Source: Cyanophora paradoxa CCMP329 (Eukaryota > Plantae > Glaucophyta). From it: DNA of 64,000 nucleotides. Positions 21,904-58,032 of the stretch are shown here, piece by piece. Within the stretch, counting starts at the first letter, position 1, and each line of letters opens with the position of its first letter. The translations under genes and the position numbers were made by a program. The notes beneath the pieces were generated by a model that saw nothing but the letters and a program-made list of their open reading frames with translations, had not been told where the DNA came from and searched no databases. Location: assembly GCA_004431415.1 (NCBI GenBank), contig QPMI01000643.1:93496-157495 (forward strand), in the 5' to 3' direction.

Positions 21904-23021
21904 TAGGTTGAATATCTTAGTTTGGGCTTCGATACGGAGGGTGCGTGTTGCTGGCAGAGACCAAAGGCGTGGTCGTGGGTTTCAGGCGTCCCGCTAACGA
22001 TAGGGGGGGCCGCGGTGCCTGGCGTGCGTCTCGTGCGGCCGGGTCGCCGTTGGGGCCGTTCCGGATCCCACCGTCTTCCTCGGGGTCGGACGCAGGCGGC
22101 TGCCATGGCGGGGCTGGGGTGGGCCGGCCGTCTGGGCCTAGCACGGACGCGCAGCCTGCGCGAACACAGAGTCCATTTGGATTTATTGCACTATAGAGAT
22201 GGGGAGCGTCCCGGGCACGTTCACCCATGAGGGGTGCGAGTCCGGAGCTGAATTTCGTGATTTGAGCAAGCCTCGCATTCAGGGGGTGCGATGCATCGCG
22301 GGAGAGCCCTTTCTTGCGGTATTCGCGGGCGAGGCGCGCACGGTCGACCGGACTGCCCAAATGGCATTTTTCGGTTGCAAGGAGACGGGAGAAGTTCCGA
22401 AATTCGCACGTATTTTTTACGTGTGCTCGCGGGTCAGACTCAACTCTGTAAACTCTACGAGTGTCGTAGTTCTCGTTCCAGCAGCGCGGGGGCGAAAAGA
22501 GTAGGACCATGTCAAATCCGCCAGGGGAAAGACCGGCTCCCGGCGGGCGTGCCACGCGCGTTTTGATGCAACTGTTGCGGCCGGGGACGGGTCTTCGGGG
22601 TCAGATTGCCAGGCTGCTTCCTCAGGGTCAGCCCAGGAAGAAAGTTCCCGGCCGTCGAGTGCCTGCCGGGAGAGGTCTGCGCTGGGGTGCAGAGCCAGTG
22701 CCGCAGCGGCGAGGCGGTCGGCTCGTGCGTTGTCCCGATCAAATGCACGGTTTGGAACCCGTTCTTCTTCCACCAGCAGGGGCAGGCTTGGTAGTCCTGG
22801 TGTATGCTGACCTAGCGCAGCCCGGGCTTCGCGCCGCCTCTGTCGTTCTGCTCGCCTGGAGGCACGAGACGCTTGCTGCATTTGGTGGACGGCTCGGCGG
22901 GCGTTCCGACGGTGGATGTGGGCAGTGCCCGCGCGAAGGTGCTCGGAGATATAGTTGTAGGCGCCGGTTAGCGGGTTCGCGCGCCCTTCGTATACTCCCG
23001 TGCCGGGGCCATATTGAGCTA

Positions 23022-23999
23022 TCAGTTCCGCCTCCGTAGGTTCGGGAGCGACCGGGTCTCGGTCAGAGAGGTAGGATTCGTATGAGTCTGCGTCTGATTC
23101 CGAGTCGTGGTCGGCCACTTCAGCGGGGCGGCAGCCGGGCGCGGGCGGCGCCGAGTTATATATTCTTTCTGGTGGGCTTTGACTTTGACAAGACGTTCTT
23201 CGTATAGCATTCTGTCGGGTGCCACGGCCCTTGCTAGTGCAAGCCGGATGCACTGCACCTCAGCATACGCTTTAAGGTGATGGGAGTACGAGGCTCGAAT
23301 GCAGCTGCGAAGGGTGGCGGTGGCGCGATGCGAGACGTACTTGGAATAGTCCGCCATTGCAGTGAAGCTGTCAGTTTTCACTGTGCAGCCTTCGGGAGAG
23401 AGCAGCAGGGCGGACAGGACGGCGAGGAGCTCGCCTTTGTTATTGTTCACTGTGCCAGGACACGGGGCCACGAAAAAGTCGCTGCCGTCGGTCGGGATGG
23501 CGTCTGCAAGGCCGCGAAGTTTCGCCACCTGGTCAGTATCGACGCCGGTTGTGCCCAGCCGGTCAGCTAGTGCGTGAATTTGTTGACGGAGGGCTATCCC
23601 TCGCTGCGTGCGGGCAGCTTCGTCAGCTAGTGAGGCCGGGTTGCTCTCACGGGGCCAGACGCCAGCGTAGGCCGTGAGTGCAGCTTCTGAGGCGGCGTCC
23701 ATGGTACTGGCATCCGTGGCTGCGAGTCGGCGCTCGCGGTCGAGCGGGAGGGAGGTGCGGCCGAGCTCCGCGGCAATCAGGTTCCAAAATGGGTCAGCAT
23801 ACTCTGACGATGGGATGCAGAAGTCGCTCAACTGTCGGCGTTGGGGGTAGGCCCGAGGCGCTGTCGGCGGGGGGACGGTCCCAGGGTCGCGAGCGGCGAC
23901 TCCATCTGGCCGCTGGGGCGCCGCGTGATCATCTGGATCATAATTCCAGTCCTGTTCCCACGGGGGAGGAAATGAGTGTCGCGGAACTCGGGCCACCAC
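23022..23999 (-). CDS. RNase H domain fragment of the LINE
   Basis: AATDAS...NNNKGELLAVLSAL...TVKTDS...VKVKAH. Confidence 0.75.
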   Translation of the reverse strand: MVARVPRHSFPPPWEQDWNYDPDDHAAPQRPDGVAARDPGTVPPPTAPRAYPQRRQLSDFCIPSSEYADPFWNLIAAELGRTSLPLDRERRLAATDASTMDAASEAALTAYAGVWPRESNPASLADEAARTQRGIALRQQIHALADRLGTTGVDTDQVAKLRGLADAIPTDGSDFFVAPCPGTVNNNKGELLAVLSALLLSPEGCTVKTDSFTAMADYSKYVSHRATATLRSCIRASYSHHLKAYAEVQCIRLALARAVAPDRMLYEERLVKVKAHQKEYITRRRPRPAAAPLKWPTTTRNQTQTHTNPTSLTETRSLPNLRRRN

Positions 24000-24885
24000 G
24001 TTATTTTATCTTCAAGGAAAATGCGAGCATGCTCGGCGACACGGCCTGACCGCGACTCGGGGACCAGGCTCTGAAGTCGGGCGGGGTAGATGTAGGCTGT
24101 GTCTTCGGTCCAGCGGCACCGTTGGGAGGCCGGGTCTGAGTGGTCACATGCGCGGCGGAGAGCCTCTGCTTCCGGCGTTTTCGCTGTGAAGCGGCTGTCG
24201 CATTCTTTGGGATCCATTATGCAGCGGAAGAAGGAGACGGGTTCGCCGGTGGTGTCATATATGTGGTCCTCTCGGTCGTCCTGGCCTTTGTCTCGGCGGA
24301 CCCAGTGTTCGAGCTCAACTAGGACGCGTTCTCTGCCGTCGTCAGCGTCAGTTGTCCGCCGGATATTGCAGATGCGTCCTAGATACGCTTCCGTTGTCCA
24401 AACGAAGCCGCCGACTTTGTACTGGGGCGAGAGCAGGCCGGCTTCAAGAAGGGTACGTTGGGCTGCAGCCGGATTTTGCGCAGGCTGCAGGTGCATGGGG
24501 AAGCGGAGACGACGGGGGATGGCGCGCGGGCCGACGGGCTGACATATTGCTCGGGTGAACGACGGGAACCAGGAGGGAGGTCTATTGAGTCGCTGTTTAA
24601 TTTTCCCGCTGCCCCATAAGCTAATCCAGTCGAGCACACTGACGCCGTCGGGCCCCGTGACGTCAGCAGCTGTGAGGATATCGTGGCGCCAAAGGAATGG
24701 TGCAGCCTCACGCAGGAGGCGCGGGGGGAGCAGTGTTGTGAGCACAAAGCGGCGTTCGAGCTGCGGGTGAGGCAGGGCCGGAACGAGATAGTCCTTGCCT
24801 GAGTCGAGTTTGTAGCCGGCGCGGGTCAGATTTCGCGCTACAGCTAGTGCAAAATTGTCTCTGTAGGCTGCGGGGCCCAGCTGTA

Positions 24886-24980
24886 ACACATATGTATAAA
24901 CTTATTTAAATCCCTCGTTCATCTCGATCGCTTCGCGATCTCGATTCACTCAGGATTTAAATAAGTTTATACATATGTGT
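24886..24980. repeat. Terminal 95-nt hairpin of element A
   Basis: ACACATATGTATAAACTTATTTAAATCC (24886-24913) pairs perfectly with 24953-24980; interior is a symmetrical 18+3+18 nt with TC/TC mismatches around GATCGC-TTC-GCGATC. Confidence 0.95.
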
Positions 24981-25289
24981 CAAAATTAATACTAAAATAC
25001 GTATTTATCGATTAAATTCTTTAACTTTTTTATGCAAACTTTGTATAAATTAATGCAAACTTTGTATTAAAAATGAAAAACGCGTTTAACTTTATGCATA
25101 TTAACGATTGAATCAATTGATCTTATATCGATTGATTATGTTCTTTGTCGATTACATATATAACTGCGATTAATTTGCATTAAACTACTTAAAGAACGAA
25201 ATAATCGCGATTAAATTGCATAAATTCGCATAAACTCGATATATCTCTCTGGTATTGAAGTAGACCACCGCCCATTCTGTATCGAAAAA

Positions 25290-25560
25290 CGCAAAAAGTG
25301 TCACAGAGTTGCATTGTGTCCAATTAAACAATCGATGAGATTGCTGATTTGCATTTGTGCACCCAAAAACTGTCACAGAGTTGCATTATCTCCAATTAAA
25401 CAATCGATTATAATGGGATGGGCACTTTTGCACCCAAAAAGTGTCACATAGTTGCATGGTCTCCAATTAAACAATCGATGGGATTGCGGATTTACATTTT
25501 TGCACCGAAAAAGTGTCACAGAGTTGCATGGTCTCCAATTGAACAATCGATTAGATTGCA
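25290..25560 (+). repeat. Four tandem ~72-bp repeats
   Basis: AAAAAGTGTCACAGAGTTGCAT..TCCAATTAAACAATCGAT recurring at ~25293, 25365, 25436, 25508. Confidence 0.9.
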
Positions 25561-25669
25561 TATGTTCTATAAAACAGAATAAATGAATTCAAGTGTGACA
25601 GGTAGTATTCAAATGATATTCAGTAAGAGATAGTTTTGTTTTTGAGAAAGTCAGTAAGAGGGGTGGAAT

Positions 25670-26140
25670 GTCTGTGACGCCTGTGACGGCTGTGACGCCT
25701 GTTTTCAGAAGTCTGTCATTTTTGAAAATTTTAAAAAGTTTGAAAGTAGGTGTCACAGGCGTCACAGGCGTCACACTCAATTAAATTAGGTGTCACAGCG
25801 AAATTGCAGACCATTTCCAGTAAGACAACTTCGCATTTTCAAAAAGGTTGATTAATGGATAGTGTTTTGTAGGTGTCAGAGGTGTCACAAGACGGATTTC
25901 AGTAAGACAAGAATATATTTTCGAAAATCTCAGTAAGAGAAAGAGATTCCATTGTTAATTGGGTGTGACGCCTGTGACGGCTGTGACGGCTGTTTTCAGA
26001 AGTCTGTAATTTTTGAAAATTTTAAAAAAAAGTTTGAAAGTAGGCGTCACAGGCGTCACAGGCGTCACAGTCAATTAAAGAGGCGTCACAGTCAATTAAA
26101 TAGGTGTCACACCCGATTATCTGACCATTTTCAGTAAGAC
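25670..26140. promoter_or_regulatory. Two iteron-like candidate origin blocks of element A
   Basis: (CTGTGACGC/G)x3 - AT-rich spacer - (GGCGTCACA)x3 at ~25670-25800 and ~25963-26110, flanked by CAGTAAG. Confidence 0.55.
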
Positions 26141-26313
26141 CATCTGAAATTCTGAATTTCTCAGTGTCAACTAACTCGGAAATCGCAATACTCTATGTTT
26201 CTCCGATTTCTCCAACCCTGAAAACACACCTGTTATTCTCTCATCTATCTCATGAGATACTCTCGTTTCGCCAAAAATTGACAAACGATTTCCCATCATG
26301 CTGTAAAGGAAAC

Positions 26314-26580
26314 ATGCCGATTAACCAGCAATATCACAATTTCCATGGGACTTACATCTTGATTGTGAATAGAATGCAAGATCATTATGAGATCTTTCAA
26401 GAGATGGGATTGCGAATTACAAGGAGATCAACTCTTTGTAGATTCTTGAAAAAGAATGGTGCTAAATGGGATAAGACAATTCGCCGATGGTATACAGAGG
26501 ATGCTAAGAGTCCCCTTCTTAATATTTTCGAGACAGATGGGGAGTTTTTCTATCAGGATCGGTTTAATCATTACCAATAG
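26314..26580 (+). CDS. Small viral protein with DUF5710-like motif (element A)
   Basis: LKKNGAKWDKTIRRWY resembles the GARWD..K.WY signature; AAAATTGA at 26274-26281 upstream. Confidence 0.45.
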   Translation: MPINQQYHNFHGTYILIVNRMQDHYEIFQEMGLRITRRSTLCRFLKKNGAKWDKTIRRWYTEDAKSPLLNIFETDGEFFYQDRFNHYQ

Positions 26581-26621
26581 CCAAGAACTCCAACTGGAAT
26601 GAGTTGTCTATTCCATTCATA
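26564..26621 (-). pseudogene. Displaced 3' end of element A penton 2
   Basis: Encodes MNGIDNSFQLEFLAIGND*, matching MNGIDNSFQLEFIE* at the end of 42364-43296. Confidence 0.92.
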
Positions 26622-26904
26622 ACACATAGTAAAATGCGGAGTTTTAACCCTCGGCTTATCTTAATTGATTTTGTTGATATATCTCGTATATTCTATTTCA
26701 ATCAATCGATAATCTGTGTGTATCTTATCGAATATTCAATTATTTCGATTATTTTGTATTCTTTTCGATATTTTATCGTAAATTTCTCTTATTTTCCGAT
26801 TAGTCTTACTGAGTCTATCGATAATCTCTATATATTTCCGAATAATATAACTGAATCTCAATTAGATCTTGCCTCTGGTTAAAACTCCGCATTTTACTAT
26901 GTGT
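26622..26904. repeat. Terminal 283-nt fold-back hairpin of element B (mirror copy 55087-55369)
   Basis: ACACATAGTAAAATGCGGAGTTTTAACC (26622-26649) pairs perfectly with 26877-26904; the 227-nt interior pairs imperfectly throughout. Confidence 0.9.
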
Positions 26905-27156
26905 GATTGGTCTAAAAGTTAATTGATTTAATCGATATTATATTCATGTACTTTCTCGATTAAATTTATTTAAATTTAATTCATTTAATCGGAAACATAT
27001 CGCTTAACTCGATTAAGATCCATAAATGATTCATTTGTTTATATTAACAAATAGATCTCTTATTGAATCCAATCGTAATTATACATGAAACTTATATGTT
27101 ATTATCATGTTTTAATGAGTCTAAGGGGGGACCCTTAGGAATTTAATGAATAATTG

Positions 27157-27452
27157 GGTGTCACAGGTGTCACAGGTCCATCCCAAACTTTTGAAAATTC
27201 ACTCTTTATAGGAGAAACTTTGGGATAAACCTGTGACACCTGTGACACATACCATATTCAGTAAGGACCTCTTTTATAATGAAAAACTCAGTCATAATCT
27301 TATCTATGTATTTCTAATTAAATGAATAAATGATTTAATCGAGTGTCACAGGTGTCACAGGTCCATCCCAAACTTTTGGAAATTTACTCTTTATAGGAGA
27401 AACTTTGGGATAAACCTGTGACACCTGTGACACATACCATATTCAGTAAGGA
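27157..27452. promoter_or_regulatory. Two iteron-like candidate origin blocks in the TIR (mirror 54539-54834)
   Basis: GTGTCACAGGTGTCACAGGT-CCATCCCAAA...TTTGGGATAA-ACCTGTGACACCTGTGACAC then CAGTAAGG, at ~27158-27266 and ~27343-27452. Confidence 0.6.
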
Positions 27453-27974
27453 CCTCATATATTGTTAAAATCTCAGTGTTAGTTGGTGTAGTTGATTCAA
27501 AAAATGCATTTATACTCTGATTCATTGTTATTTCCTGTGAAATTTGAGTCAACTCAACCCACTTAGTCAACCCTTGCATTGAATTCGTAACAAAATCCAT
27601 ATACTATTACTACTTTTACGATTAATATGAGTCAACCTTGAGTCCACTTAAATATAAATATAATATAATAGGGGGAATCTAGGGGAGATGCTTAGAAACA
27701 TATGAATTATTGAGCCTATGAGACTTACATCGTCACGCTAGCCTCGTTGAGAGGATTCCGAATCTGTTTTTATCTTTGTGAGATGATGAGTTGGTGAAGA
27801 GATACATGCTTTTTAGTGTTTTGTATGGGAGTTTTCGATATGACGTCATCATGACGTTGCATATGTATATGATATATATGACACACGGGCGGACTCGGGA
27901 GATTATGACGATCACGGCGATGTGTTAATTGTCATATTGTTTATGTATATATATTTGGCGCAATCTGATTGGTG

Positions 27975-28610
27975 TGCTTGAAACCACATAATTCGTGCTT
28001 TAAACCACATAATTCGTGCTTTAAACCACATAATTCGTGCTTGAAATCACTTATTAAAAACTAATTCGTGCTTGAAATCACTAATTAAAAGATAATTCGT
28101 GCTTGAAATCACTTATTAAAAGATAATTCGTGCTTGAAATACTAATTGAAAGATAATTCGTGCTTGAAATCACTAATTAAAAGATAATTCGTGCTTGAAA
28201 TCACTTATTGAAAGATAATTCGTGCTTGAAATCACTAATTAAGAGATAATTCGTGCTTGAAATCACTAATTGAAAGATAATTCGTGCTTGAAATCACTTA
28301 TTAAGAGATAATTCGTGCTTGAAACCACTGATTAAAAGATAATTCGTGCCTAAAACCACTTATTAAAAGATAATTCGTGCTTGAAATCACTTATTGAAAG
28401 ATAATTCGTGCTTGAAATCACTAATTGATAGATAATTCGTGCTTGAAACCACTGATTAAAAGATAATTCGTGCCTGAAACCACTAATTAAAAAATAATTC
28501 GTGCTAAATGAAATCGATTACATGATATCGATTACATGAAATCGATTACGTACATGAAATCGATTGCATGAAATCGATTACATGAAATCGATTACATGAA
28601 ATCGATTTCC
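27975..28610 (+). repeat. Compound minisatellite: 21-bp x3, 31-bp x~15, 14-bp x~7
   Basis: Core TAATTCGTGCTTGAAATCAC about 18 times, then CATGAAATCGATTA repeats at 28508-28610. Confidence 0.92.
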
Positions 28611-28831
28611 ATAAAGAATAAAACATTTCGCCGAAGTTTCGCCGAAGTTTCGGTGTTTCGTTTCTCCGCATCTTCAAACGCTTGTATCTCATCACCAGAT
28701 AGTCAACTTGCAGCGTTCTGCATAGCGTTGTGAAGCGCTTGAGAAGATCTACACGTTGATGTGTATATCATATGCATATATGTATATCACACATACATAT
28801 ATTTGGAAAAAACGAGTTTTCGGCTATGAAA

Positions 28832-30217
28832 CTAGCTAGTTTTGGTCCTTTCTCTTAGTGTTCTTTGAGGTTTAGGGGCTGTATATGACTCCTTAGTAGT
28901 CTGAAAGTCATTATACCATCTCTGGCTATTCACTTCTGAAAGTTTCTGTGTCCCTGCTATAGTGAGCTTTTTGAGTTCCCTGCTAACTTTTCCAGCCTTC
29001 TCCTTCCTAGCCTCTATCAAAGGCTTATCTGGGACTTCATTAGCAGCTTCTATGCCTTCTCTCCTTATAGCAGCATCAACCCTAGCTTCCTCTTTAGCTT
29101 GCTCCAAGGCATCCACTGTAGGTGTTTCCAGATACTCAACTGCATTCACAGGCAACAGCTCATGGAATGCAAACCTGTTATCTATGATCTCTCCAGTGGG
29201 ACTCCTTAGCTTAAACTTAAAGCCTTCCCTACTATCAACTGTGTAAACCATCCTAGACCAATTGTTACCCTGTTTAGCAAAGGGGTTTTTCTCAACTTTC
29301 ACTCTAACAAACATGCCAGGCTGCATGGTATCAAGGTAAGCTATTGATTTCTTGAATCTTTCATCTTCTAATCCCACTATATACCTATAATGCTCCTCTG
29401 TAGTTTCGCCTGGCTTCATCTTAGTAGCTGAGTGAACTGTATTATTGTAATTATACTCAATATCACCTAACACATCAAAGAATCTAGCTGTGTTATTAGC
29501 TATGCAGTAGTTTGTGATCAGTCTCTTAATCTGCTTGTTAAAGGCTTCAATTCGACCTTGGCTTCTATGGTCAGCAGTTCCACTCACTTGGTGTTCTATG
29601 AATTTACTAGATAAATACTCCTGGAATATTCGATTTTGGAATTCACTCCCAGCATCTGATTGAACTTTTACTATGGGTCTTGCCACTCTCATTTCAAGCT
29701 GTTTAAATGCAGCTAATGTAGTGAGAGCTGATTTATCCCTTATAGGTATAATATACCCAGTTCTCAGTGTGGATTCCATTGCAGTCATAAAGGTATCATA
29801 GCCATTGTTTTGTTTCTTATAAGCTGGGAAAAAGAGCAAATCAATCACATAGGTATCAAGGGGCTGCCTAATTGGAACCATGGGATCTCTCTTCCTAGAT
29901 ATAGCTGGTGCATTGATCTGAACTACCTCTTGTTTTTTATAGAACTCTTGCAATTGCTTATAGGATTCATCAGGTAACTCAGCCCTCATAGCTTGAAGCC
30001 CTTTGTAACCAGTTCTCACATCATAGAATCTCTTTGCAATCTTGCTGGTTTCTTTCACTGCAATAGCAACTGGGATCTCTACTGGGACAAGCTCTTTCAT
30101 CTCTGATTTTTTGACAATTCGAGATTCCCCCTTTTCCTCCTTTGGAATTGTGATAGGCAGTAGGTTACCTTGCAGTTGCTCAGTGGTTCTCCTAACTATT
30201 CTTCCAGTTGCTGGCAT
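28832..30217 (-). CDS. Polinton-type retroviral-like (rve) DDE integrase
   Basis: YVIDLLFF, VQSDAGSEF, QGRIEAFNKQIK, YNNTVHSATKMKP; uninterrupted 461-aa ORF. Confidence 0.93.
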   Translation of the reverse strand: MPATGRIVRRTTEQLQGNLLPITIPKEEKGESRIVKKSEMKELVPVEIPVAIAVKETSKIAKRFYDVRTGYKGLQAMRAELPDESYKQLQEFYKKQEVVQINAPAISRKRDPMVPIRQPLDTYVIDLLFFPAYKKQNNGYDTFMTAMESTLRTGYIIPIRDKSALTTLAAFKQLEMRVARPIVKVQSDAGSEFQNRIFQEYLSSKFIEHQVSGTADHRSQGRIEAFNKQIKRLITNYCIANNTARFFDVLGDIEYNYNNTVHSATKMKPGETTEEHYRYIVGLEDERFKKSIAYLDTMQPGMFVRVKVEKNPFAKQGNNWSRMVYTVDSREGFKFKLRSPTGEIIDNRFAFHELLPVNAVEYLETPTVDALEQAKEEARVDAAIRREGIEAANEVPDKPLIEARKEKAGKVSRELKKLTIAGTQKLSEVNSQRWYNDFQTTKESYTAPKPQRTLRERTKTS

Positions 30218-30220
30218 CTC

Positions 30221-33200
30221 TTAATTAAAAGGAACAGAATTAATACCATCTGGTAAGATGTATCTCTTTGCATCAAAGCAGTTTAGGGCAACCCTTCTAC
30301 TCACAGTGTCTATTATTGTGTGATCTGCCCTTCTTTTCTGCTTTGCAGTCACAGTCTTGCTGATACCTGCAAATAAACACTGCTTAAAATCATTAAATTG
30401 GAGTTCCTCAGTTGAAGTCCCAGAGAGCTTACTCCTCTCAATCTCAGCAGTTCTGAAACTGTAAACTTTGGCTCTCAGACCCACATACTCCAATATAGCA
30501 GAACCTGGCATTTCATTTTTGTATTTACCTGGGGTCATTCTTGAATCACCTCCAAGGTCCAAAGAATAAGCAATATTCTCTATATCTTTTGCAATGGTCT
30601 TAGATTCAATATATAGACAGAAGGAGTCAGTATCATGGAATAGTAACTTTGCTTTTGTCCATTGGGACCTTACAGTATCATAGAAGAACTGGTAATTATG
30701 CAGTTTGGCTGCATCCAAAACATAAGCCCCAATTGCAACAGGCTTATCTAGTTTCACATGCTTTGTGTAAAACTCAAAGGCAACTGCTTTTTCGTTTATG
30801 GGGCTTGTTGATTTCACCAATGGGGAGGCTGCATATTTCATAAATAGTTTCTCACTGTTTGCAATCTTAACCACAGATCTACCTCTGCAAGATTCAATGC
30901 ATTTCCCATAGATTGAATTATTCATGAGCTTGTAGAAATCAGCCTCGAATTTATTCACTGCTTTCCTTCTCATGTCAGTATTCAGCTCAATATAGGGTTT
31001 CATTACAGGAGCCACAGTAAATGATAGGACCCTGTGAACTTTCTTTAATTTCACCCCTTTGTCCAACAGATATTGCAGAAGAGGCTCAGAAATCACATAG
31101 TTTGTCACAGAACCAAAGGTTGCAGTTAGCTTAGGGGTCTTATCAAGCTCTTCTCCTGAAAGATCTAATAGGCTCTTTTGATATTGTGATAATTCGGCAT
31201 AATCTATTATTTTCTTGTTAATAATTAGGGGAAATCACTGTGATCTAGAAACAGCCTAATTGGGTAATCCAGATCAACTTCTAGGAAACTGGATCTGTTA
31301 TCTTGTGGGTTGAATTCGGTCTCCCATCTAAAATCACCAACTGGAATTGGCTGACTCAAACAGTAGCCATACAAGTTGTTAGCATCAAACAGCATAATGT
31401 GGGAGTTTTCACCATCAGCCTCAGCATACCTACAAGGCATTGTTGCAAAGCCACCCCTGATTCCCCTCTCAACAAATTCGTATTGCTCTACATCACTTAT
31501 AAGCTCTATTTTTGCCTTGGTGGTCCTTAACATAGCATCCCAAGATAACCCAGGGGCAGATACATAATGAACTGGGTCAAGTCCATATACTGAGTGTGAA
31601 AGCCTTCTAAAAGCCTGGAATTTGTTCATTAACTCATCTACATCAGCAGCTCCAAAATCCATGAAATTGCTTGCATCAATGAACTTGTAAAGACCCCATT
31701 GCAATGACAGGTATTGATCAAAGTTTTTCGAAAGGATTTCGATTCGCTTTTTATCACCCATGCCTGCTATTTTTCTGAAAATGAATGTCCCACAGTCATC
31801 CATTTGGTCAACAACCACTGCTACTTTTGTTTGCTTTGAGATTCTCCTATGGAGATTGCAGTTTCTGCATGCAGGTGCAATGTAATTACCTGTGTGGTGA
31901 TCATGATCCCTGCATTTGAAGTTCTCCTTAGTGAACCTCTCACTGCAAAGGTAACATTGTTTGGTAGCTCTGTAAATTGCTTTCTGCTCATCTGTGAGTT
32001 CATTCATAGGAATATTGGTGAACAGGAAATCGATCAGCTCTCTTGCTTTGATTTCCAAGCATTCAAACAGACCTCCCATTGGATCCTGACCCTCAAATCG
32101 AAAATCTTGAACATCTTCCCCAGTGACTACTCTAAGGTTCACTGCTGAGACTTCCCGCTTGGATTTCGATGCATCAATGGGGATGCTTCTATGTTCAATC
32201 TTGCAGTAAACCACAACAGGAAGCCACACAGTTTTCCTGAGGTTTTTCAGTCCAAACTCTATGGTGGTCTCAGGTTTAGGGGTGATTCCCTTTGAGAGTC
32301 TCCAATCAATGCATCTGTTTGAGTCCACATGAGCAGTGAGTTTAGCCTCAGACCTGAATCGAGATAAGCATGTATCACAGTAGTGTAACTTTTGATCCTT
32401 GGTTTTATCAAGGGCAACTCTGAGAAGTCTTGAAAGGGACATGATTGTAATATAGTGACCATTCCCTTCATCATCATGAATGAGCATGAGATTAATCTTT
32501 TGCTTTCTGCCTGGGTTGCTGGATTGATGCAGTGGATATATAACATCTCCATCCATTCCAAAGATGTTTATGCTAATGCCTGCATTTTGAGCTTCGAATT
32601 TATCAATGATTTCAGCATCACAAGGAACAGGGAATGGGATATTGTCGAAATTGAGAGCCAAAGGATTGTATGTGGTTGGTGAGTATTTCCATTTGCGATA
32701 TTGTGTAAGCTCACTTCTCTTGTGGGAATTTACATCTTTCCTATGGATCCATGCCAAAATGGCATTTTCAAAGCAAGAATCATCAATATTTCGAATATTC
32801 ACTGTGGCTCTCTTGGCTGCAATTGATTCTGGTGTTTTAACATAGCAGCCACCAGTTGGGGCATAACTCATAATAGCAACTCTTAGCATTTCGATTCTCT
32901 CCAATCGATAGCTATCAACAACATTCATCTGTTCCTGACACATTTGGGCTGCTTTATTCAGCTCAGTTCGAATATTTCTCGATTTGGTTAATACAAAATA
33001 ATCGCTGTAAATGTATTTCGATATCCAAACCTGTGGATTGCTGACTTTTACGAACTTGCAGATAAACGACAAGCGAACTTTGATTGCCCTGAATTGATCC
33101 AGACTATCTCTTAAACGTTTTGGTAGAGAGGTTGCAATTCTATCTAAATATTCAATCACATCTACCACAACTTCCCTTCTGGCTCTGTATGTGAGCCAGC

Positions 33201-33465
33201 GATATAATTCATTCATGGCTGTTCCATCTTCTGCCTCTGGTTCTATTTGCCTCAGGCGATCGAGTTCATCAAGAGTCTCAACTTTGTCATAGAGGTTATT
33301 GGCTTTTCTGGTTAATTTTGCTAAAGTGGGTCTGCCCCTTGAAATAAATCCGATTTCCCGGTCATATTCAGCCTCTGTGATTTCATGGGCTGCATACAGT
33401 GTTCCCAGTAATCCCATAAGTTCCCATTTCTTCTCTCTAATGAGTCTGTTGCTAATTCGGGGCAT
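30221..33465 (-). CDS. Protein-primed family B DNA polymerase (one frameshift at 31228-31231)
   Basis: OTU-like region (NIDDSCF...GHY), C2H2 finger, endonuclease VII-like insert (CYLC...RDHDH..G.Y...AC..CN), motifs DANNLYG, KLMNNSIYGK, DTDS, GLRAKVY. Confidence 0.92.
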
Positions 33466-34912: not shown

Positions 34913-37239
34913 ATGAACGCCAAACAGACTAAATCGCTCAAATCGCTCGCTAACTGGCTCAGATCTGATGAGGATCTAGCCAAAAACATGATTATCCCAG
35001 TGAAACCTGACAGCAAAGACCCTGTTTTCAAGCATAAGGGAGGTGCTTGGTCCTGGGAAAAGTATGAGGAAGCGCTGGCAACTAATCAGTATGTATCTTG
35101 GGGCATTCTGCTCTCAGACAACATGATGGTTATTGACTTTGATGATGAGGAGGACTTTGAGAAATTCCGAGATATGTTTCCTGATGACTTTGATGCCAAT
35201 CAGCCCATGGCAAAAACTAAAAAAGGCTATCATGTCTACTTCAAACGACCTGAGGAGTTCACTAAACTCAAAATTACCGATAAGGCTCCAGGCTTTAAAG
35301 GCTTTGAAAAGGTTGACCTGAAAACAATCACTGGAACTGGAACTTCTGGATTAATTAATGTTTGTCCCAGTGTCAACAAGACCTGGGTAATTGCTCCATG
35401 GGATGATACCTGTGATTTCAATGAGCCTACTGATGAGTTTAAAAAGTGGATTGCAGAGAACTATATCTATAAGAGTGAGTATACTGCTAGTGCTAGCTCA
35501 AATGATGAACTGGAAAAGAGTATTCTTAAAGAGCTGGTGGATATGGGCTTTATGCATCCCAATATAATCTCTAAAACTGAACTTGGCTTTAGCTTTGATG
35601 CTGCTAATAAGGGACTCAATTGCCCATGCTGCAATGGTTCCCATGAATCGAATAACTGGTATGTTATGAAAGCCAAAGGAGAAGATAAAAAGTATATTGT
35701 GTCCAGCTACAGTGGCAATTGCAAAAAACGATTTATCTTCATTGGAATGCAATCTGATATCTTCAATCTCATTGATAAATCCGCTGGCTCTGGAGGCGCT
35801 CATTATGATGTCAGTCTTGTGTGCAAAGAGGTCCTACAACACACTTGGAGATACTCCAAAAAGTCATGGTTCAAACTCAATACTGATACTGGGATTTGGG
35901 AGCATGATGACACAAACCAAAAGATTTACCTAGACATTAGTTGCCTTGTTGTCCCTCAATACCTTGGCAGGGCTGTGCATTATAGTCAAAGAGCTTTGAA
36001 GGATGAAGAGAATAGAACAGCTTTCGAAGAGAAATCGAAAACATTAATTTCTATTGCCAAAAATCTTAAACAATCAGGATATCGCAAATCCCTTCTGACT
36101 GATCTGCTCCCTCTGCTAAATGATGATGAGTTTTACGAGAAGATTGATACAGTTCCATATGTAATTGGATTCGATAATGGTGTATTTGATCTGACAACTA
36201 TGACTTTCAGAAAGGGTAAACTGGAAGACATGGTGAGCAAGAGTGTGGGTTATGATTATACTGAGAATGTAGACCCCAAGAAAGTGGAGCATCTCAATCA
36301 GATTTATAGAGAGATTGTAGATGATCCAGCAGAGCGAAACTATCTTCTGGCATCTATTGCAATTGCTTTGAGTGGATCAACAAAATCACAGAAGTTCTAC
36401 ATGTGGACTGGTGCTGGTGCTAATGGTAAATCACTTGTTCAGGAATACTGCAAACAGATATCTGGGGCTTATTACAGCCCTCTCGAAATATCCTATTGGA
36501 CCAAACCTAAGAAGAACTCATCAGATGCTACCCCTGAACTTGCCAAACTCCTGGGAAAGCGACTTGTATTCAGTAATGAGGCTGAAGATGGTGATAAACT
36601 GCAAATCTCCAAAATTAAGGAGGTCACAGGTGGAAATGAAATGACTGTGAGAGCCTTGTTCAAAGATCCAGTTATCCTTACTCCAATGTTTCAAGTCTAC
36701 ATTACAACCAATGACAATTTGACTATAAACAAACCAGACTTTGCAATTCAAAGAAGGCTTTCATACCAGAGATTTAACAATATTTTCAGAGAGAAGCCAG
36801 AAGCTGGTCAAAAGAAAGCTGACCCAACTCTGTTCACACTTCTACACAATGATGATGAGTATAAGATGGCTCACATGAAGATATTACTGGATATGTGGAA
36901 GAACAAAGAGGTTGAAGAGATCTTAAGAAATCCCCTCAATCGATTATTGAACAAGGGATAAACTTTATAGCTGAAAATGATAAGATTGGTGAATGGCTTA
37001 GGGATAATTTCGAAGTAACCCACAATGCAAACGACTTTGTTTCGAGTGATACCATTTACAAATCATACAGAAGTGTCGATGATAAAGTTGAATGTGTTTC
37101 TGTGATGAAGAGAGTAAGGGAAATCTTCAATGTGAAATCAGAGGTTAAAAGAATTCAGGGAACCAGAGCAAGGGGCTACATTGGACTTCGAAAGATAACA
37201 AGGGTTCAAGAAGACAATGGAGAGGATGTCGAATATTAA
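34913..37239 (+). CDS. AEP primase-polymerase fused to D5-like SF3 helicase (one frameshift at 36932-36935)
   Basis: VIDFDD and KTKKGYHVYF, CPCC...H Zn site, IGFDNGVFDL, Walker A GAGANGKS, Walker B VFSNE, ITTN; the shifted frame continues ENDKIGEWLRDNF...RGYIGLR to stop 37237-37239. Confidence 0.92.
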
Positions 37240-37280: not shown

Positions 37281-37391
37281 CCTTACTGGAAATGGTGTTG
37301 TTCACAGGTGTCACAGGTCCATCCCATCTAGGGGGCTATAAAACGAAAAATGACCAGGGGACGATAAAAACCTGTGAACACCTGTGACACC
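37281..37391. promoter_or_regulatory. Internal iteron-like candidate origin directly downstream of the helicase
   Basis: CCTTACTG...TTCACAGGTGTCACAGGTCCATCCCA...AAAACCTGTGAACACCTGTGACAC, same architecture as the TIR blocks. Confidence 0.65.
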
Positions 37392-39053: not shown

Positions 39054-39836
39054 TTATAAACCGCGTTTATATCGCATCAATTTATTGCTATGGACTTGGC
39101 TTTTCACTTCTTTAGGGGCTTCCTCTTTCTCTGGTGGTTTCAGTTCATCTTCTTTCTTCTTGGGCTTCCTGTGGAAGCGAGGAAAATCGAAATCTCCAAC
39201 TAAATCGGCTTTATCAACATAGTAGCCCACATTATACTTGAAAGATGTATAAACAAGGAATTGATATGAGTGGACATACTCTTCAAACAGTTGATAGAAA
39301 TCTTCTTTGCGAGGAAAAGTCGAAAACTCCTCTGCAAATGCTTCCAGCTCTTTTTGATTGCTTGCACAAACCATAATTACTATATCACTATTGCAGCGAA
39401 TAACACTTGCGACCTTTCTTAATTTTTGGGAAATAGTTATAATTGATATATTGACATGTCTGCCACGAACATAAAGCATTCCCACTGTTTTATCTCGACT
39501 GAGATCCAGCTGGTCATTTTCTATCATATCCTCTAAAATCACCAGCATATGGTTAAGTTCTTCTCCTTTCTCCCTTTTTGCCTCTCTTTCTTTTATAATT
39601 TTCGACATGTATTGGGGATCCCATGCACCCAGTTGAACAGTAGCAGCTTTGTCCCAGAAATGTGAGAATGAGGTAGCGGATATAATAAGGGTTGTATCAA
39701 TCTTTTTGGCATCATGCAGCTGTTTCAAATAATATTTTACGGCTTCAGTTTTTCCGCATCCACTTTTACCTAGTATGAGTAGTCTGAAAGGGGGTTCTAT
39801 CATTTCACCAGCATTAAATTCTTCCAGATCTTGCAT
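39054..39836 (-). CDS. A32-like (FtsK/HerA) genome packaging ATPase
   Basis: ILGKSGCGKT, LVILEDM, RGRHVNISIITISQ, IRCN. Confidence 0.93.
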   Translation of the reverse strand: MQDLEEFNAGEMIEPPFRLLILGKSGCGKTEAVKYYLKQLHDAKKIDTTLIISATSFSHFWDKAATVQLGAWDPQYMSKIIKEREAKREKGEELNHMLVILEDMIENDQLDLSRDKTVGMLYVRGRHVNISIITISQKLRKVASVIRCNSDIVIMVCASNQKELEAFAEEFSTFPRKEDFYQLFEEYVHSYQFLVYTSFKYNVGYYVDKADLVGDFDFPRFHRKPKKKEDELKPPEKEEAPKEVKSQVHSNKLMRYKRGL

Positions 39837-39901: not shown

Positions 39902-41271
39902 CTACAAATTTATACGACGAAGCCCATCCTTGTCCAAAATTATATAGGAATGCATGAGAGCGCGAACATTAACATCGATTACCTTATCTGAAGGCATGTA
40001 CAGGGTGAGGAATGAAGAGGAGGAATTTGTTAAATCAACATAACCAGACTGGGCAATATTTCGAATTGCCTTCTCTCCATCAATGCAGAAACTTAAACCT
40101 GAAAGGACATAGCGATCAGCAACCTTATCCATGTTAGAGCATTTGAAGGCATCAGCAATTAGCTCAGCACCTTTGAGTAGGGAAATTGGCTCAGTGGCAT
40201 AAAGTCGCTGTCCATTAATTTCAACAGTGAAAGTAATATCTTTGGAGTTGGCATAGGTCTTAAGAACACTGTGGGAGCCAGTGGATTTATCAACAGTTGC
40301 ATTATCACGAACTGAAACAAGCAGAGCATAAACAAGACCTGAGATTTGAGAGAGGTTAATTCGATTGGGTTGGGCATTGCCCTTGGCAGGGAAAGCACTA
40401 GCATCTACAAATCCAATATCAAGGGAGGGAATAGCCATGCCAGTAGTCTTTACTTTTTCAATTACAGTAGCGAAAAGCTCATCAGAAACATTAATAGCAT
40501 GCATGTAAAGGCGAGGAGAAGTAATAGAAATGACAGGGGTTGTTGCACCAAGAGTAAAGTCTGTGATGTTTTGACCAACATTTGCCAGAACAGTTTCAGC
40601 AGGGGCAGTTCCAAGACCGTCATCTTTTGAATAATCTACATCATCTGCTGCAACAGTAAGACCACGACCACCATAGGAAGTTTCAACATAACCCTTTCCA
40701 GCATCCTTAAACCAAACAGTAACAACCATTTCACCAGATAAAGCACCAAGGGGAAGGTAGTGATTTAGCCAAGGCACAGGAATTTCAACGAAAAATGAGC
40801 CACCAAGGCGGTTGGTTCCATGAGCAGGAATGCCATGAACCATGCCCATTGATCGCTTCTTTTTAGCTAGTTGATCCTCCGAATAATAGACCAGGGGAAA
40901 TGAGCAAGGAAATCAGATGGAATATGGTAGGTGTAAGATCCATAGGTAATTTCAAGTCGCTGAACTAAAGCACCAACTGGGCGAGTGTATCCATTGCGAA
41001 CTAGGTCAGTATCACCAGCAAAAGTGATGGCTGGAAGGTCGAAAGCAAGTTCGAGTTTTCCACAGAAATTGTAGCGAGGTAGCTTGAAGGAAATGCGATT
41101 TCCAACATTATTCTCAAAAGTATTGCTGGGATTCACAACAACTAGAACTGGCTTAGACTTGGATTCGAGACCAAGCATAAGGGAGTTATCCAGGAAAAAG
41201 GCTTTCGCCTCCTCTGGGGTTGTTAGGGCTTCTTTCAGCGAAAGTCTTTGAAGAGTGGAAGTGATATCCAT
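39902..41271 (-). CDS. Double jelly-roll major capsid protein (one frameshift at 40894-40897)
   Basis: About 456 aa after joining; ISFKLPR...LELAFDLP...LVQRLEITYG...YLPLGAL pattern; lies between ATPase and pentons; nearly identical N-terminus in element A. Confidence 0.8.
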
Positions 41272-42363: not shown

Positions 42364-43296
42364 ATGAACCGGCTCGTTAATATTGATAGCAGGGATAGAA
42401 GCCAAGGACAAAATGAAAACTCTTACAGGGTCACCCTCACAACTCCAGTAGAGAGACCAAGGGAATGCAGGGTTCTATATGCAGAGATTCCAAACAGCAT
42501 CTATAACAGTGTGGGAACTGATCATCTAACAGTTCAGTTTAATTACCAAGATGGTTCATATAACCAAGTGATCACACAACAAGTGTATCCCCTTCCCAGT
42601 GGCTACATCAATCAGGGTCATTTTGGGGTAACACACCCTTATAATTATGGGCTGAACTATTCAAGCTTCCAAACCATTGCAGGCAAAACAGTAGCTTTTG
42701 AGTTCAAGATATTCTATAACCCAACTACCTATAAAGTGGAGTTTTACAGTAACCATGAGTTTCGTTTTATTGCAAGCAACCAGAGAATAGGGAAGCTTTT
42801 GGGTGTAAGTTCTACTGAATACACCAATGGGTATTATAGCACTCCTCCTGTTGGTGGATCTCCCTATCGACCTGAGAACCTTTTAAAGTATGATGGCAAA
42901 CCTATTACACCTGATCACCCAGCATGGGGAATCACCTTCTCAGGACCCAGACTCTCCTCTAAGCCCTTGCAATATTATTTTGACAGCAGGAAGATGTCTG
43001 ATATGAATGCTGAGCAGTATCTGTACATGCATATTAAAGAGCTGTCCCCCTTTGCCAGCAGACACAATATAATTCCAAAATCGCAACCACAAAATCAGGG
43101 AGCTATCCTTAGATTGCAATTGAGTAAGGATATAGGGGGCTATGTTTACCATAGTGGTGAGCATGCAGAATTTATTCAAATCAATGACAGAAACCTGGTG
43201 ATAAGGGAACTCACAGTTGAATTTAAAGATTACTTTGGTGAACTGATTGATATGAATGGAATCGATAATTCTTTTCAGTTGGAGTTTATCGAATAA
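42364..43296 (+). CDS. Minor capsid/penton protein 2
   Basis: VNIDSRDR...AEIPNSIYN...LTVEFKDYFGELIDMNGIDNSFQLEF pattern. Confidence 0.72.
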   Translation: MNRLVNIDSRDRSQGQNENSYRVTLTTPVERPRECRVLYAEIPNSIYNSVGTDHLTVQFNYQDGSYNQVITQQVYPLPSGYINQGHFGVTHPYNYGLNYSSFQTIAGKTVAFEFKIFYNPTTYKVEFYSNHEFRFIASNQRIGKLLGVSSTEYTNGYYSTPPVGGSPYRPENLLKYDGKPITPDHPAWGITFSGPRLSSKPLQYYFDSRKMSDMNAEQYLYMHIKELSPFASRHNIIPKSQPQNQGAILRLQLSKDIGGYVYHSGEHAEFIQINDRNLVIRELTVEFKDYFGELIDMNGIDNSFQLEFIE

Positions 43297-54304: not shown

Positions 54305-55369
54305 TCCCCTAGATTCCCCCTATTATATTATATTTATATTTAAGTGGACTCAAGGTTGACTCATATTAATCGTAAAAGTAGTAATAGTATATGGATTTTG
54401 TTACGAATTCAATGCAAGGGTTGACTAAGTGGGTTGAGTTGACTCAAATTTCACAGGAAATAACAATGAATCAGAGTATAAATGCATTTTTTGAATCAAC
54501 TACACCAACTAACACTGAGATTTTAACAATATATGAGGTCCTTACTGAATATGGTATGTGTCACAGGTGTCACAGGTTTATCCCAAAGTTTCTCCTATAA
54601 AGAGTAAATTTCCAAAAGTTTGGGATGGACCTGTGACACCTGTGACACTCGATTAAATCATTTATTCATTTAATTAGAAATACATAGATAAGATTATGAC
54701 TGAGTTTTTCATTATAAAAGAGGTCCTTACTGAATATGGTATGTGTCACAGGTGTCACAGGTTTATCCCAAAGTTTCTCCTATAAAGAGTGAATTTTCAA
54801 AAGTTTGGGATGGACCTGTGACACCTGTGACACCCAATTATTCATTAAATTCCTAAGGGTCCCCCCTTAGACTCATTAAAACATGATAATAACATATAAG
54901 TTTCATGTATAATTACGATTGGATTCAATAAGAGATCTATTTGTTAATATAAACAAATGAATCATTTATGGATCTTAATCGAGTTAAGCGATATGTTTCC
55001 GATTAAATGAATTAAATTTAAATAAATTTAATCGAGAAAGTACATGAATATAATATCGATTAAATCAATTAACTTTTAGACCAATCACACATAGTAAAAT
55101 GCGGAGTTTTAACCAGAGGCAAGATCTAATTGAGATTCAGTTATATTATTCGGAAATATATAGAGATTATCGATAGACTCAGTAAGACTAATCGGAAAAT
55201 AAGAGAAATTTACGATAAAATATCGAAAAGAATACAAAATAATCGAAATAATTGAATATTCGATAAGATACACACAGATTATCGATTGATTGAAATAGAA
55301 TATACGAGATATATCAACAAAATCAATTAAGATAAGCCGAGGGTTAAAACTCCGCATTTTACTATGTGT
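54305..55369 (-). repeat. Right terminal inverted repeat of element B
   Basis: Mirror of 26622-27686, followed by TSD TTCATA. Confidence 0.95.
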
Positions 55370-56249
55370 TTCATATCAACAAGATCACCATAATAATCTC
55401 GAAACTCAACTGTTAACTCTCTAATCACAAGGTTTCGATCGGTTATTTTTATGTATTCACTGTGCTCTCCACTGTGATAAACATACTGTCCAATATCTTT
55501 ACTCAATTGCAATCTGAGAATCGCCCCTTGATTCTGTGGTTGTGATCTTGGGACAATATTGTGGTTTGTAGCAAATGGGGAGAGTTCTTTAATGTGCATG
55601 TATAAATACTGTTCTGCATTCATGTCTGTCATCTTGGATGCTTCTAACTTGTAGTTTAAGCGAGATGCCTCGAATTCATATCCTGTGAATGTGATTCCCC
55701 ATTGGGGATGGTTTGGGGTGATTGGGATTCCTGCAAAATAGAGGAAATTCTCGGGGGCATATAAAGACCTTGCAGACTCTGGGAAATCGTAGGTTTGCTC
55801 AATTGAAGCGACCCACTCCACAGAACTAACCCAAGAAGTTTACCCAATCTCTGTGTAGATGCTACCATCTCGAATTGAACATTACTGTAAAACTCCAATT
55901 TGTAGGAAGTAGGATTGTAGTAGACCTTGAATGCATATGTGAGATTGTTGCTCCCAGTAAATGTGAAATTCAGACCATAATTATATGGACTGGTGACCCC
56001 GAAATGCCCTTGATTAATATAACCACTTGGGAGAAGGAAGACCTGTTTGGTTTCAGAGATGCCTTGGTAGAAGAATCTGACAAGAAGGTGGTCTGTTCCA
56101 ATGGAATTATAGATGCTGTTGGGGATCTCTGCATACAAAACTCGACATTCTCTTGGTTTGGTCACTGGGGTTGTGAGTGAAACTTTGTAGGAGTTTTCTA
56201 TTTGTCCATCTGATCGGTCTCTGCTATCTATATTGACCAGCCGAATCAT
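55370..56249 (-). pseudogene. Element A penton 2, interrupted by element B
   Basis: MIRLVNIDSRDR...YGDLVDM, completed at 26621-26564; additional frameshift at 55830-55832. Confidence 0.88.
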
Positions 56250-56277
56250 TTTAATATATGTTTATAGATAAAAGAAG

Positions 56278-57288
56278 ATGCCTGTGGATTACATCGAAGT
56301 GAGCTCTTTCAATACAATTTCGGGAGATGGACCAACTTCGAGTTTTATTGCTCGCCTCCCAAGCACCTATGAATTTGTGAGAGCAGTAAGACTGGTTTCA
56401 GCAGAATTCTATAACAGCATTCCCATGGTGAGTGGTGAAACCAAACCAGGAGATGTGACAATAGATAATGCAATCTACCTTTATTGGTCTGAATATTATT
56501 CTGGTGCAGGAAGCACTGGTATTCCAACTGATCGACCTGCTGCCGATTATGAGCAATGGAAGCACATTGTGATAAGTCGCAGCACACCCATTCAAAACCA
56601 CCAACAACTGGTGAATGTAATTAACTCCAAACTTGCATTGAGAGAGCCACCAGTAGCAATTCGCTGTAAATGGGATGATACACTGAAACGAGTAATATTC
56701 CATTCCACCATACCGTTTTACCTGGCTTTCTCAACTGCAATAAACCCAACCCAGGCGCAGATTCAGAGGTTTTTGAGTTCTGCTCGACTGCTTGGTCTTG
56801 ATCCTGGGAGATATGGTAACACCCCAATCCAATCACAAGTTTATAATACTCTGACTGATGGTATCTTTACTGGGTCGATGGTGCATGGTATCATATCTTC
56901 ATTTGAACCTGAAAAGACCAGGGATAGTGTTCTGTTTGTGAGAGTAAAGGAGTTGGGTGATCTGGTTCAATGTGGTGATGGTCTCCTCACTGGATATTTC
57001 CACAAAATCGTTGTTCCAGATAAAGATTATGGTGAGCATGTCGTTTATAATTCGACAGAAGCCCATCCGATTTATAAATACTATAACAAGAATCTGGGAC
57101 TTTCCACATTTTCGGTTGATATTGTGAATGCAGTTAATGAACCAATTGATTTCGAGGGTCAACCTGTCCACCTCACCTTCGAAATTCGATATGGTGATGA
57201 ACCTGCTGGTGATCCTGTGTACGAATACTTCAAGAGGAGAATGGCGGAAACACATCCATCTTATCCGGTTATTGCGAATTTTGCGTAA
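56278..57288 (+). CDS. Element A minor capsid/penton protein 1 (intact ORF)
   Basis: Highly similar to 41325-42334. Confidence 0.75.
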   Translation: MPVDYIEVSSFNTISGDGPTSSFIARLPSTYEFVRAVRLVSAEFYNSIPMVSGETKPGDVTIDNAIYLYWSEYYSGAGSTGIPTDRPAADYEQWKHIVISRSTPIQNHQQLVNVINSKLALREPPVAIRCKWDDTLKRVIFHSTIPFYLAFSTAINPTQAQIQRFLSSARLLGLDPGRYGNTPIQSQVYNTLTDGIFTGSMVHGIISSFEPEKTRDSVLFVRVKELGDLVQCGDGLLTGYFHKIVVPDKDYGEHVVYNSTEAHPIYKYYNKNLGLSTFSVDIVNAVNEPIDFEGQPVHLTFEIRYGDEPAGDPVYEYFKRRMAETHPSYPVIANFA

Positions 57289-57341
57289 ATCAAGGATCAT
57301 TGGTGAATTTTTTATGTTGCAGTATAATAAAAGAGATAATC

Positions 57342-57776
57342 ATGGATATTACTTCGACCCTCCAACGTCTTTCTCTGAAAGAAGCTCTAACAACCCGGAA
57401 GAAGCCAAGGCGTTCTTCTTGGACAACTCTCTCATGCTTGGTCTTGAATCCAAGTCGAAGCCAGTTCTTGTTGTTGTGAACCCAAGCAACACTTTCGAGA
57501 ATAATGCTGGAAATCGCATTAGTTTCAAGCTCCCTCGCTACAATTTCTGTGGAAAACTCGAACTTGCGTTTGACCTTCCAGCTGTCACTTTTGCTGGTGA
57601 TACCGACCTTGTTCGCAATGGATACGTTCGCCCAGTTGGTGCTCTTGTCTCTCGACTTGAAATCACCTATGGATCTTACACCTTCCATGTGCCTTCTGAT
57701 TTCCTTGCTCATTTCCCTCTTATCTATTACAGTGAGGATCAACTCGCCAAGAAGAAGCGTTCAATGGGAATGGTTC
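57342..57776 (+). pseudogene. Element A major capsid protein, 5' part, interrupted by the Gypsy LTR
   Basis: Matches the B MCP up to KKKRSMGMV, then sequence switches to TGTCGG at 57777. Confidence 0.88.
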
Positions 57777-58032
57777 TGTCGGATGAGAGGATTCCCACCC
57801 GGTGCAGCGTCCGTGCGGTCACGCACGGGCTGGGGCTGTAGCTGGGAGCACAAGTGGTCTATTCACAAGTGTACCCGTCCAGGGATCGCGTACCCCCAAA
57901 CGGAGTCGCGCCCGGCGCTAAGTCAGAATACAGAGAGTGCTAGAGCTAGCTGCTCGATAGCACTAGACTAGGGCTAGCGGCTACGCATAGACTGCCGGCT
58001 AGCCTAATCCGAGGGAATCGCGGCACGCGACA
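57777..58032 (-). repeat. 3' LTR (256 bp)
   Basis: Termini TGTCG...CGACA; preceded on the minus strand by the purine tract AGAGTGAGGAGT (58033-58044). Partner LTR not in the window. Confidence 0.7.

Follow-up and report, generated by a model that had tools for sequence, protein, structure and literature searches.

End replication in most Polinton-like viruses is an unsolved question according to a preprint on Halocafeteria seosinensis (bioRxiv 10.64898/2026.07.28.741278), which in its available part reports terminal palindromes in endogenous virophages of subtypes 1, 2, 5 and 6 and in a Polinton-like virus of subtype 4. In our literature search this preprint was the only source describing terminal palindromes of these viruses; the words hairpin and palindrome have no hits in PMC12721341, and PMC11296320 mentions hairpins for poxviruses only. 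Among more distant systems, the 3' overhangs of Streptomyces fold through sheared G:A loops, are patched by terminal-protein-primed synthesis and are subject to fold-back repair (PMC4513846, PMC5449611), and poxvirus hairpin telomeres occur as flip and flop complements (PMC8956199), as far as the available portions of these papers go. Here we describe the ends of two nested Polinton-like viruses, elements A and B, in 64,000 nucleotides of Cyanophora paradoxa CCMP329 (assembly GCA_004431415.1, contig QPMI01000643.1, positions 93,496 to 157,495 of the forward strand), hereafter the window, to which all coordinates refer. Both elements end in fold-back hairpins, and this end structure is real and conserved. 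What is new here is non-canonical pairing confined to one strand, combined with a terminal-protein polymerase; terminal palindromes themselves were already known, and the first-pass annotation of this DNA was too strong in naming the hairpins its best candidate for an undescribed system, since palindromes beside target duplications and a hairpin-priming model are both found in the accessible part of the preprint.

The two elements form an AT-rich island of 33 kb (24886-57800) within an otherwise GC-rich eukaryotic window, whose short and GC-rich introns point to a microbial eukaryote. The left boundary of element A lies at 24886, inside an element resembling a long interspersed nuclear element (LINE) with RNase H and Ulp1 domains, and is supported by the host-flank contig, which ends at 24886 in three of four runs. 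Near 57800 element A is interrupted by a Ty3/gypsy long terminal repeat retrotransposon, so that its other end lies beyond, outside the window. Element B spans 26622-55369 and interrupts a gene of A within its final codons. The features that define these ends are as follows.

19243-24885, (-): LINE-like retroelement, target of A, with RNase H and a C-terminal Ulp1 protease domain
24886..24980, (-) as the folding strand, 3' end at the terminus: terminal hairpin of A, 95 nt, with a perfect 28-bp stem, three tandem GA/GA, one G·T and a GAA loop
24930..24936, (-): apex mini-hairpin of A, GCGAAGC
26616..26621, (+): left copy of the 6-bp target duplication of B, within the final codons of the A gene
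26622..27686, (+): left terminal inverted repeat (TIR) of B, 1065 bp, identical to the right TIR
26622..26904, (-) as the folding strand: left terminal hairpin of B, 283 nt, stem 26622-26649 with 26877-26904, interior 227 nt
54305..55369, (-): right TIR of B, 1065 bp, without a mismatch to the left TIR
55087..55369, (+) as the folding strand, which ends 3' here: right terminal hairpin of B, 283 nt, its orientation towards the end matching that of the left hairpin
55370..55375, (+): right copy of the 6-bp target duplication of B

All three hairpins read ACACATA...TATGTGT, each stem being perfect over exactly 28 bp, and those of B lie flush with the 6-bp target duplication. The first-pass annotation, which had proposed these hairpins from the letters of the sequence, was exact in their coordinates and lengths, and its terminal motifs, stem lengths and placement of B's hairpins directly inside the duplication were all confirmed. 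Since the two hairpins of B are identical in sequence, the independent ends number two and not three. Between A and B the stems differ at 12 of 28 positions, the first 7 and the last 2 bases being common, and each difference is matched in the opposite arm. The annotation's proposal of a conserved structural end is supported. The hairpin of A folds with a z-score of about -12 to -14, none of 200 shuffles being as good, and 35 inverted pairs of 20-mers within 300 nt were found in 24886-57800 (the iteron pairs described below are counted in) compared to none in each of 20 base shuffles. The interiors alone, measured by a strand-neutral fold-back score, were likewise better than all dinucleotide shuffles, with none of 300 equal for A and none of 60 for B. 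The fold is one unbranched rod in A, and a rod is favoured in B, rather than several tightly packed hairpins. All three ends seen, two of them independent, share one interior orientation. The 8 bases on either side differ at all three hairpins, which therefore carry no target duplication of their own and are not miniature inverted-repeat transposable elements (MITEs); the free-standing MITEs that the annotation had named as a danger to its own reading were thus not seen. Contigs (run X16, record 16; run X3, joint 26720-26835) point to at least one further hairpin type, with the same start base as B's and a different interior.

The mismatches within these rods differ in kind between the two strands. 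With an unbranched fold-back under a strand-neutral score, A has 7 mismatches and B has 33. The strand with its 5' end at the terminus shows T·C, T·T and A·C, pyrimidine pairs making up 6 of the 7 in A and 26 of the 33 in B, so that the pyrimidine-mismatched interior of the first-pass annotation holds for this strand; the emphasis placed on it does not, the complement being the informative strand. There, on the strand ending 3', A has six G·A and one G·T (7 of 7 purine·purine or G·T), and B has 17 A·A, nine G·A, five G·T, one C·C and one A·C (31 of 33 purine·purine or G·T), a share that was reached by none of 60 shuffles of B and was stable under all six scoring settings. The longest apex-closing run of Watson-Crick, G·A, A·A and G·T pairs in A is 18 on the 3'-ending strand (reached by 0 of 500 shuffles) compared to 6 on the other, and in B it is 28 (10 of 500) compared to 8 (369 of 500). 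In both elements a tandem GA/GA stands at columns 30-31, directly past the stem. Element B has two such tandems and element A three, two of which lie in the symmetric Py-GA-Pu context (pyrimidine before, purine after) in which tandem GA forms sheared pairs (PMC10085684, in the part available). The apex of A is GCGAAGC, and the only GNA triloop (N, any base) of A with at least two closing pairs sits on the 3'-ending strand; the available part of PMC13037366 gives GCGAAGC a melting temperature of 76.5 C, resistance to 3' exonuclease, lower stability in RNA form and presence at priming origins. No earlier description of one-strand non-canonical pairing at such ends was found in a literature search whose scope left out subscription journals and bioRxiv supplements. 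The main text of the Halocafeteria preprint has no hits for 'mismatch' or 'imperfect', and its own palindrome sequences may carry the same bias.

Our leading, and still tentative, interpretation is a strand-specific 3' cap that is completed by protein priming. The 3'-ending strand would fold into a stable cap, at whose tip the terminal-protein polymerase would prime, copy through the cap and restore an open end for the integrase. We place this interpretation first because B has the genes for a scheme like that of Streptomyces. In such a scheme, the primase-helicase would fire at the iterons or aid strand displacement and thereby leave the 3' end single-stranded; the 3' end would fold, with sheared G·A, A·A and G·T as its non-canonical pairs and with GCGAAGC as the cap in A, and would withstand nucleases; and protein priming on the terminal AC/GT repeat would rebuild the 5' strand. 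The 5'-ACAC tip is compatible with slide-back protein priming. Occasional fold-back copying from the inner to the outer arm, comparable to Tap-mediated telomere repair, would keep the 28-bp stem perfect. Since protein-primed fill-in keeps the orientation and never inverts the interior, selection would act on one strand only, and a bias towards pairs tolerated on that strand is expected because it alone would fold, round after round. Every step past the anatomy of the sequence is inferred here, and a stability bonus for sheared pairs is assumed. The first-pass annotation had come close to this interpretation with a single-strand fold-back that serves protein priming, and its stress on pyrimidine bubbles is not supported. 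Its other proposal, closed telomeres like those of poxviruses, fares worse: hairpin transfer or cruciform resolution swaps the complements and yields flip and flop, as in poxviruses, which would favour no strand, and the single orientation of the three ends speaks against it, as weak evidence. As the interior is asymmetric, its orientation across copies or long reads is a built-in marker, a single one being expected of protein-primed fill-in and both of hairpin transfer.

The protein-primed DNA polymerase (pPolB) and the other parts on which the 3'-cap interpretation draws are the following.

31225..33465, (-): N-terminal piece of pPolB, with a terminal-protein fold, an OTU-like domain, a degenerate exonuclease with an HNH/EndoVII insert, and motif A
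30221..31234, (-): C-terminal piece of pPolB, with motifs B and C, in a frame different from that of the N-terminal piece
28832..30217, (-): rve integrase of B (PF00665, E 2.6e-4, under the cut-off; two of three homologues have PF00665)
34913..37239, (+): AEP primase-SF3 (D5) helicase of B, C-terminal tail in another frame
27160..27433: two inverted pairs of TGTCACAGG repeats in the left TIR of B, candidate origin iterons
37301..37391: third inverted pair of iterons, immediately following the primase-helicase gene
25673..26106: inverted pairs of 9-bp TGTGACGCC-type repeats in A, a variant form, candidate origin iterons by inferred role

That B is a pPolB element, as first annotated, is confirmed by the polymerase it encodes. 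The structure model of this protein is weak (mean predicted local distance difference test score, pLDDT, of 44; a single-sequence model with pLDDT 31 was useless). In the model, residues 95-204 resemble the little-finger fold of Y-family polymerases (Z 8.3, root-mean-square deviation 2.9, 100 residues aligned), residues 209-343 OTUD1 (Z 6.2) and residues 413-692 the phi29 polymerase (Z 8.1); no sequence match of pPolB to solved structures was found. For PRD1-like terminal proteins, the best match reported is a little-finger fold, and a terminal protein-vOTU-palm layout, like that of the model, is described in the same preprint (bioRxiv 10.1101/2024.03.18.585575, in its available part). Homologues of the polymerase piece numbered 8648 at E 0.001 or better in a full HMMER search and none in a word-index search. 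In pPolB the three exonuclease motifs have all degenerated, and about 100 residues are deleted. Among the five sequences aligned out of 150 listed hits and loci, which were chosen by score or by a single matched stretch, the loss is common to an unbroken relative of 1083 aa (P0006, 45% identity) and similar in P0088, and it is not found in P0007, P0010 and L013. Since the unbroken P0006 also lacks the exonuclease, the loss is not decay of B's copy. This HNH-bearing, Polinton-type pPolB lineage (B, P0006 and P0088) has lost the exonuclease and retained the terminal-protein, OTU and polymerase motifs, and its loss is apparently separate from that of mavirus. A special role of the EndoVII domain as a hairpin resolvase was considered and dropped, because the insert is common in this polymerase group.

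Each TIR of B holds two inverted pairs of the 9-bp repeats (right copy 54560-54833); the subterminal pairs lie 0.5-1.2 kb inside the ends and resemble the origin iterons of primase-helicases. A CAGTAAG motif adjoins the 9-bp repeats at 27160-27433, 37301-37391, 54560-54833 and 25673-26106. Between A and B one base of the repeat and the orientation of the pairs differ, and these differences may reflect distinct origin specificities. Element B has both pPolB and AEP-SF3 genes and so speaks neither clearly for nor clearly against the preference for non-pPolB replicases reported in the Halocafeteria preprint.

Several observations weigh against the 3'-cap interpretation. The share of purine·purine and G·T mismatches in A was reached by 197 of 277 shuffles, as composition alone would give, so that only their register is special in A; 17 of the 33 mismatches in B are A·A, in a strand with 47% A. 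The interior of A alone does not fold significantly on either strand (z about -1.4), the apex of B lacks a GNA cap and has two competing registers, and standard DNA energies differ between the strands by only 2-4 kcal/mol (-32.5 versus -30.6; -50.3 versus -46.0). When two contig variants were placed on the fold, out of a set with 95 further letter variants, one fitted, turning a bulge into G·T, and the commoner of the two misfitted, turning G·A into C·A. There are only two independent ends, and three of three ends in one orientation has a 1-in-8 chance under flip and flop. As for the proteins, Foldseek returned nothing at E 0.001 or better with the pPolB model, the replication genes of A are not in view, and mavirus combines exonuclease loss with an SF3 helicase, hairpins not being linked to these in the available part of bioRxiv 10.1101/2024.03.18.585575. 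Finally, a stem flush with the 3'-OH is a perfect self-primer, which favours hairpin self-priming.

Hairpin self-priming, the model of the Halocafeteria preprint (bioRxiv 10.64898/2026.07.28.741278, in its available part), is possible, and we judge it the less probable account. Here the folded 3' end, its stem flush with the terminus on its own template, would itself act as primer, giving closed ends or head-to-head junctions that a nick by the HNH domain or the integrase would reopen before integration. The HNH domain of pPolB indeed retains an intact DHDH motif, yet HNH inserts are general in this polymerase group, and no HUH/Rep or resolvase family was recognised among 30 element open reading frames (ORFs) scanned in Pfam, an absence that is not conclusive. 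The first bubble, a GA doublet within a 3-nt loop, recalls the CT/CTC bubble at the left ends of parvoviruses, for which asymmetric resolution and a single orientation are reported (PMC1185569, in the part available). Simple hairpin transfer, on the other hand, would flip the interior with every round and so exert no selection for one particular strand. In the preprint, moreover, terminal palindromes go with replicases other than pPolB, and an AEP-SF3 gene is present in B; B also retains, however, its terminal-protein fold. The contigs of four runs list no strand-changing joint, a negative with almost no power given a 28-bp stem and 31-letter words.

Strand displacement of the adenovirus/phi29 type with no internal origin is a good deal less likely. 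The fold-back would then replace the panhandle as duplex origin, or the stem would be a 28-bp handle for the integrase or the packaging motor. The terminal protein-OTU-palm architecture is kept, and stems of exactly 28 bp with their first 7 and last 2 bases conserved look like a protein footprint; mismatched hairpins of vaccinia function in packaging (PMC8956199, in its available part). A panhandle is already possible, however, via the perfect 1065-bp TIR, and the primase domain and the iteron pair behind the primase-helicase gene would be left unexplained. About equally improbable is a by-product, that is, ends once folded back and copied and since decayed and functionless, or an RNA hairpin that ends outward transcripts: fold-back copying alone yields perfect arms, so that the 12 two-sided stem differences need not be selection, the Halocafeteria preprint raises accidental annealing, and hairpins of similar size with A mismatches lie between genes, away from the ends, in the distant relative L013, yet decay explains neither the strand bias nor a GA/GA register common to two elements that differ in length and sequence, GCGAAGC is more stable as DNA than as RNA (PMC13037366, part available), no Rfam family reached its gathering score in 24500-28900, and no gene terminates near A's hairpin.

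A search for relatives gave no closer set of ends for comparison. Single-protein scans of the viral_contigs collection yielded no relatives, and patterns of the terminal DNA gave there five chance matches with stems of 7-8 bp and none for the apex of A; the phage collection gave no match. Alignment scans found 36 loci (L006-L041), nearly all at 23-35% identity, four of them short HNH-only matches at 45-52%. Perfect stems of at least 20 bp occur in 5 of the 28 loci L006-L033, none a demonstrated terminus, and in none of the eight loci L034-L041; no complete end is demonstrated in any of the 36, so these counts are no evidence of absence. Since all 36 loci are distant and have no proven terminus, the comparison of ends is confined to A and B. 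One locus, L025, shows a 101-nt inverted repeat running end to end and no hairpin of this kind, in a sequence that may be incomplete. In L013 the region of pPolB, rve and DUF5710 carries related imperfect hairpins of 100-120 nt at 3942-4057, 11236-11357 and 12446-12548; these were rejected as termini because they are positioned behind or between genes, and they resemble the 3'-end transcript hairpins of giant viruses. Short perfect palindromes are clustered upstream of the A32 ATPase gene in two further loci (L026, 8854-9212; L027, 5707-6065).

The remaining genes of the island agree with the placement of B. Among the traits tested for Polinton-like viruses and Polintons, B has the jelly-roll major capsid protein (MCP), A32 ATPase, pPolB, rve integrase, TIRs and 6-bp target duplication; for the maturation protease, a trait of Polintons sensu stricto, no protease family was recognised among B's scanned ORFs, where a divergent one could escape. 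The corresponding features, with the part of A to the right of B, are listed here.

39054..39836, (-): A32 packaging ATPase of B (PF04665, E 5.9e-14)
39902..41271, (-): double jelly-roll MCP of B in two pieces (Atlas matches of 0.97 to Capsid_NCLDV clusters, low recognition score)
55376..57790: rest of A in view, with capsid-region genes homologous to those of B and the start of A's MCP gene

The capsid-region genes of A and B share 76-87% nucleotide identity. The gene of A that received B at its 3' end has a homologue within B itself, at 42364-43296. Several core genes are split over two frames (30221-33465, 34913-37239, 39902-41271 and 55327-57790) despite the identical TIRs of B; because contigs carry single-base indels relative to the window in the stretch they cover, assembly errors are as likely a cause as decay. 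Element B also encodes a fibre-like protein of 2248 aa (44885-51631, (+)) with about 16 exact 12-residue His-Thr repeats, a duplicated domain and a weak Pfam PTR match, together with a patatin-like phospholipase (43588-44841, (-)) and an S-adenosylmethionine decarboxylase (53699-54097, (+)). A 31-bp tandem array and a 14-bp array lie at 27956-28610, just inside the left TIR of B and ahead of the end of the integrase gene.

If the 3'-cap interpretation is right, it would mean that non-canonical G·A pairing is under selection at eukaryotic viral telomeres, converging with the ends of Streptomyces and of parvoviruses, and it would give one reason for the presence of pPolB and a primase-helicase in the same element, which the available part of the Halocafeteria preprint regards as a transient state. 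A further step, that Streptomyces-style telomeres evolved independently in an integrating eukaryotic virus lineage, with replication from subterminal iterons by a primase-helicase, a sheared-purine 3' overhang and a proofreading-less polymerase reduced to a terminal-protein end-patcher, is more doubtful still; it would give Polinton-like viruses a third mode of end replication, next to hairpin priming and strand displacement, readable from one-strand purine mismatches in the sequence.

Compared with the known systems, as far as the cited sources are available, mavirus (bioRxiv 10.1101/2024.03.18.585575) is like B in having a retained terminal protein-vOTU unit, a lost exonuclease, an SF3 helicase and an rve integrase. 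In B, unlike mavirus, it is a Polinton-type pPolB with an HNH domain that has lost the exonuclease, and the helicase forms one protein with an AEP primase; the word 'hairpin' has no hits in the mavirus paper. Poxvirus telomeres (PMC8956199) are likewise AT-rich, incompletely paired terminal hairpins, but they are covalently closed, occur as both complements, depend on a Holliday-junction resolvase and do not integrate flush with a target duplication. The left end of the autonomous parvoviruses minute virus of mice (MVM) and LuIII (PMC1185569) shares the 3' hairpin, the small purine bubble and the single orientation, in a single-stranded DNA genome with a Y-shaped hairpin that requires an NS1/Rep nickase, none of which was recognised in the scanned ORFs of A and B.

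The Halocafeteria elements come nearer, with a palindrome within the TIR beside the target duplication, an rve integrase, a protist-type endogenous virus and the idea of hairpin priming. Their palindromes were sought with up to 4 mismatches and a gap of up to 10, the example given being 52 nt long, and go mostly with non-pPolB replicases. The ends of A and B, in contrast, are 95 and 283 nt long with 7 and 33 mismatches (counts held against the preprint's settings and not made with its program), the mismatches are strand-biased, and those of B stand beside a terminal-protein pPolB. The telomeres of Streptomyces with their Tpg and Tap proteins serve us as a working analogy and not as a group to which A and B belong: they form several short hairpins and not one rod, lack a B-family polymerase, employ unrelated proteins and are bacterial and non-integrating. 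What they share with A and B is sheared G:A and GNA loops (in A and B a likeness of sequence pattern only, B being without an apex cap), complementarity of terminal and inner arms, a terminal protein (in B a retained terminal-protein fold) and, on the 3'-cap interpretation, folding confined to the 3' strand and fold-back repair.

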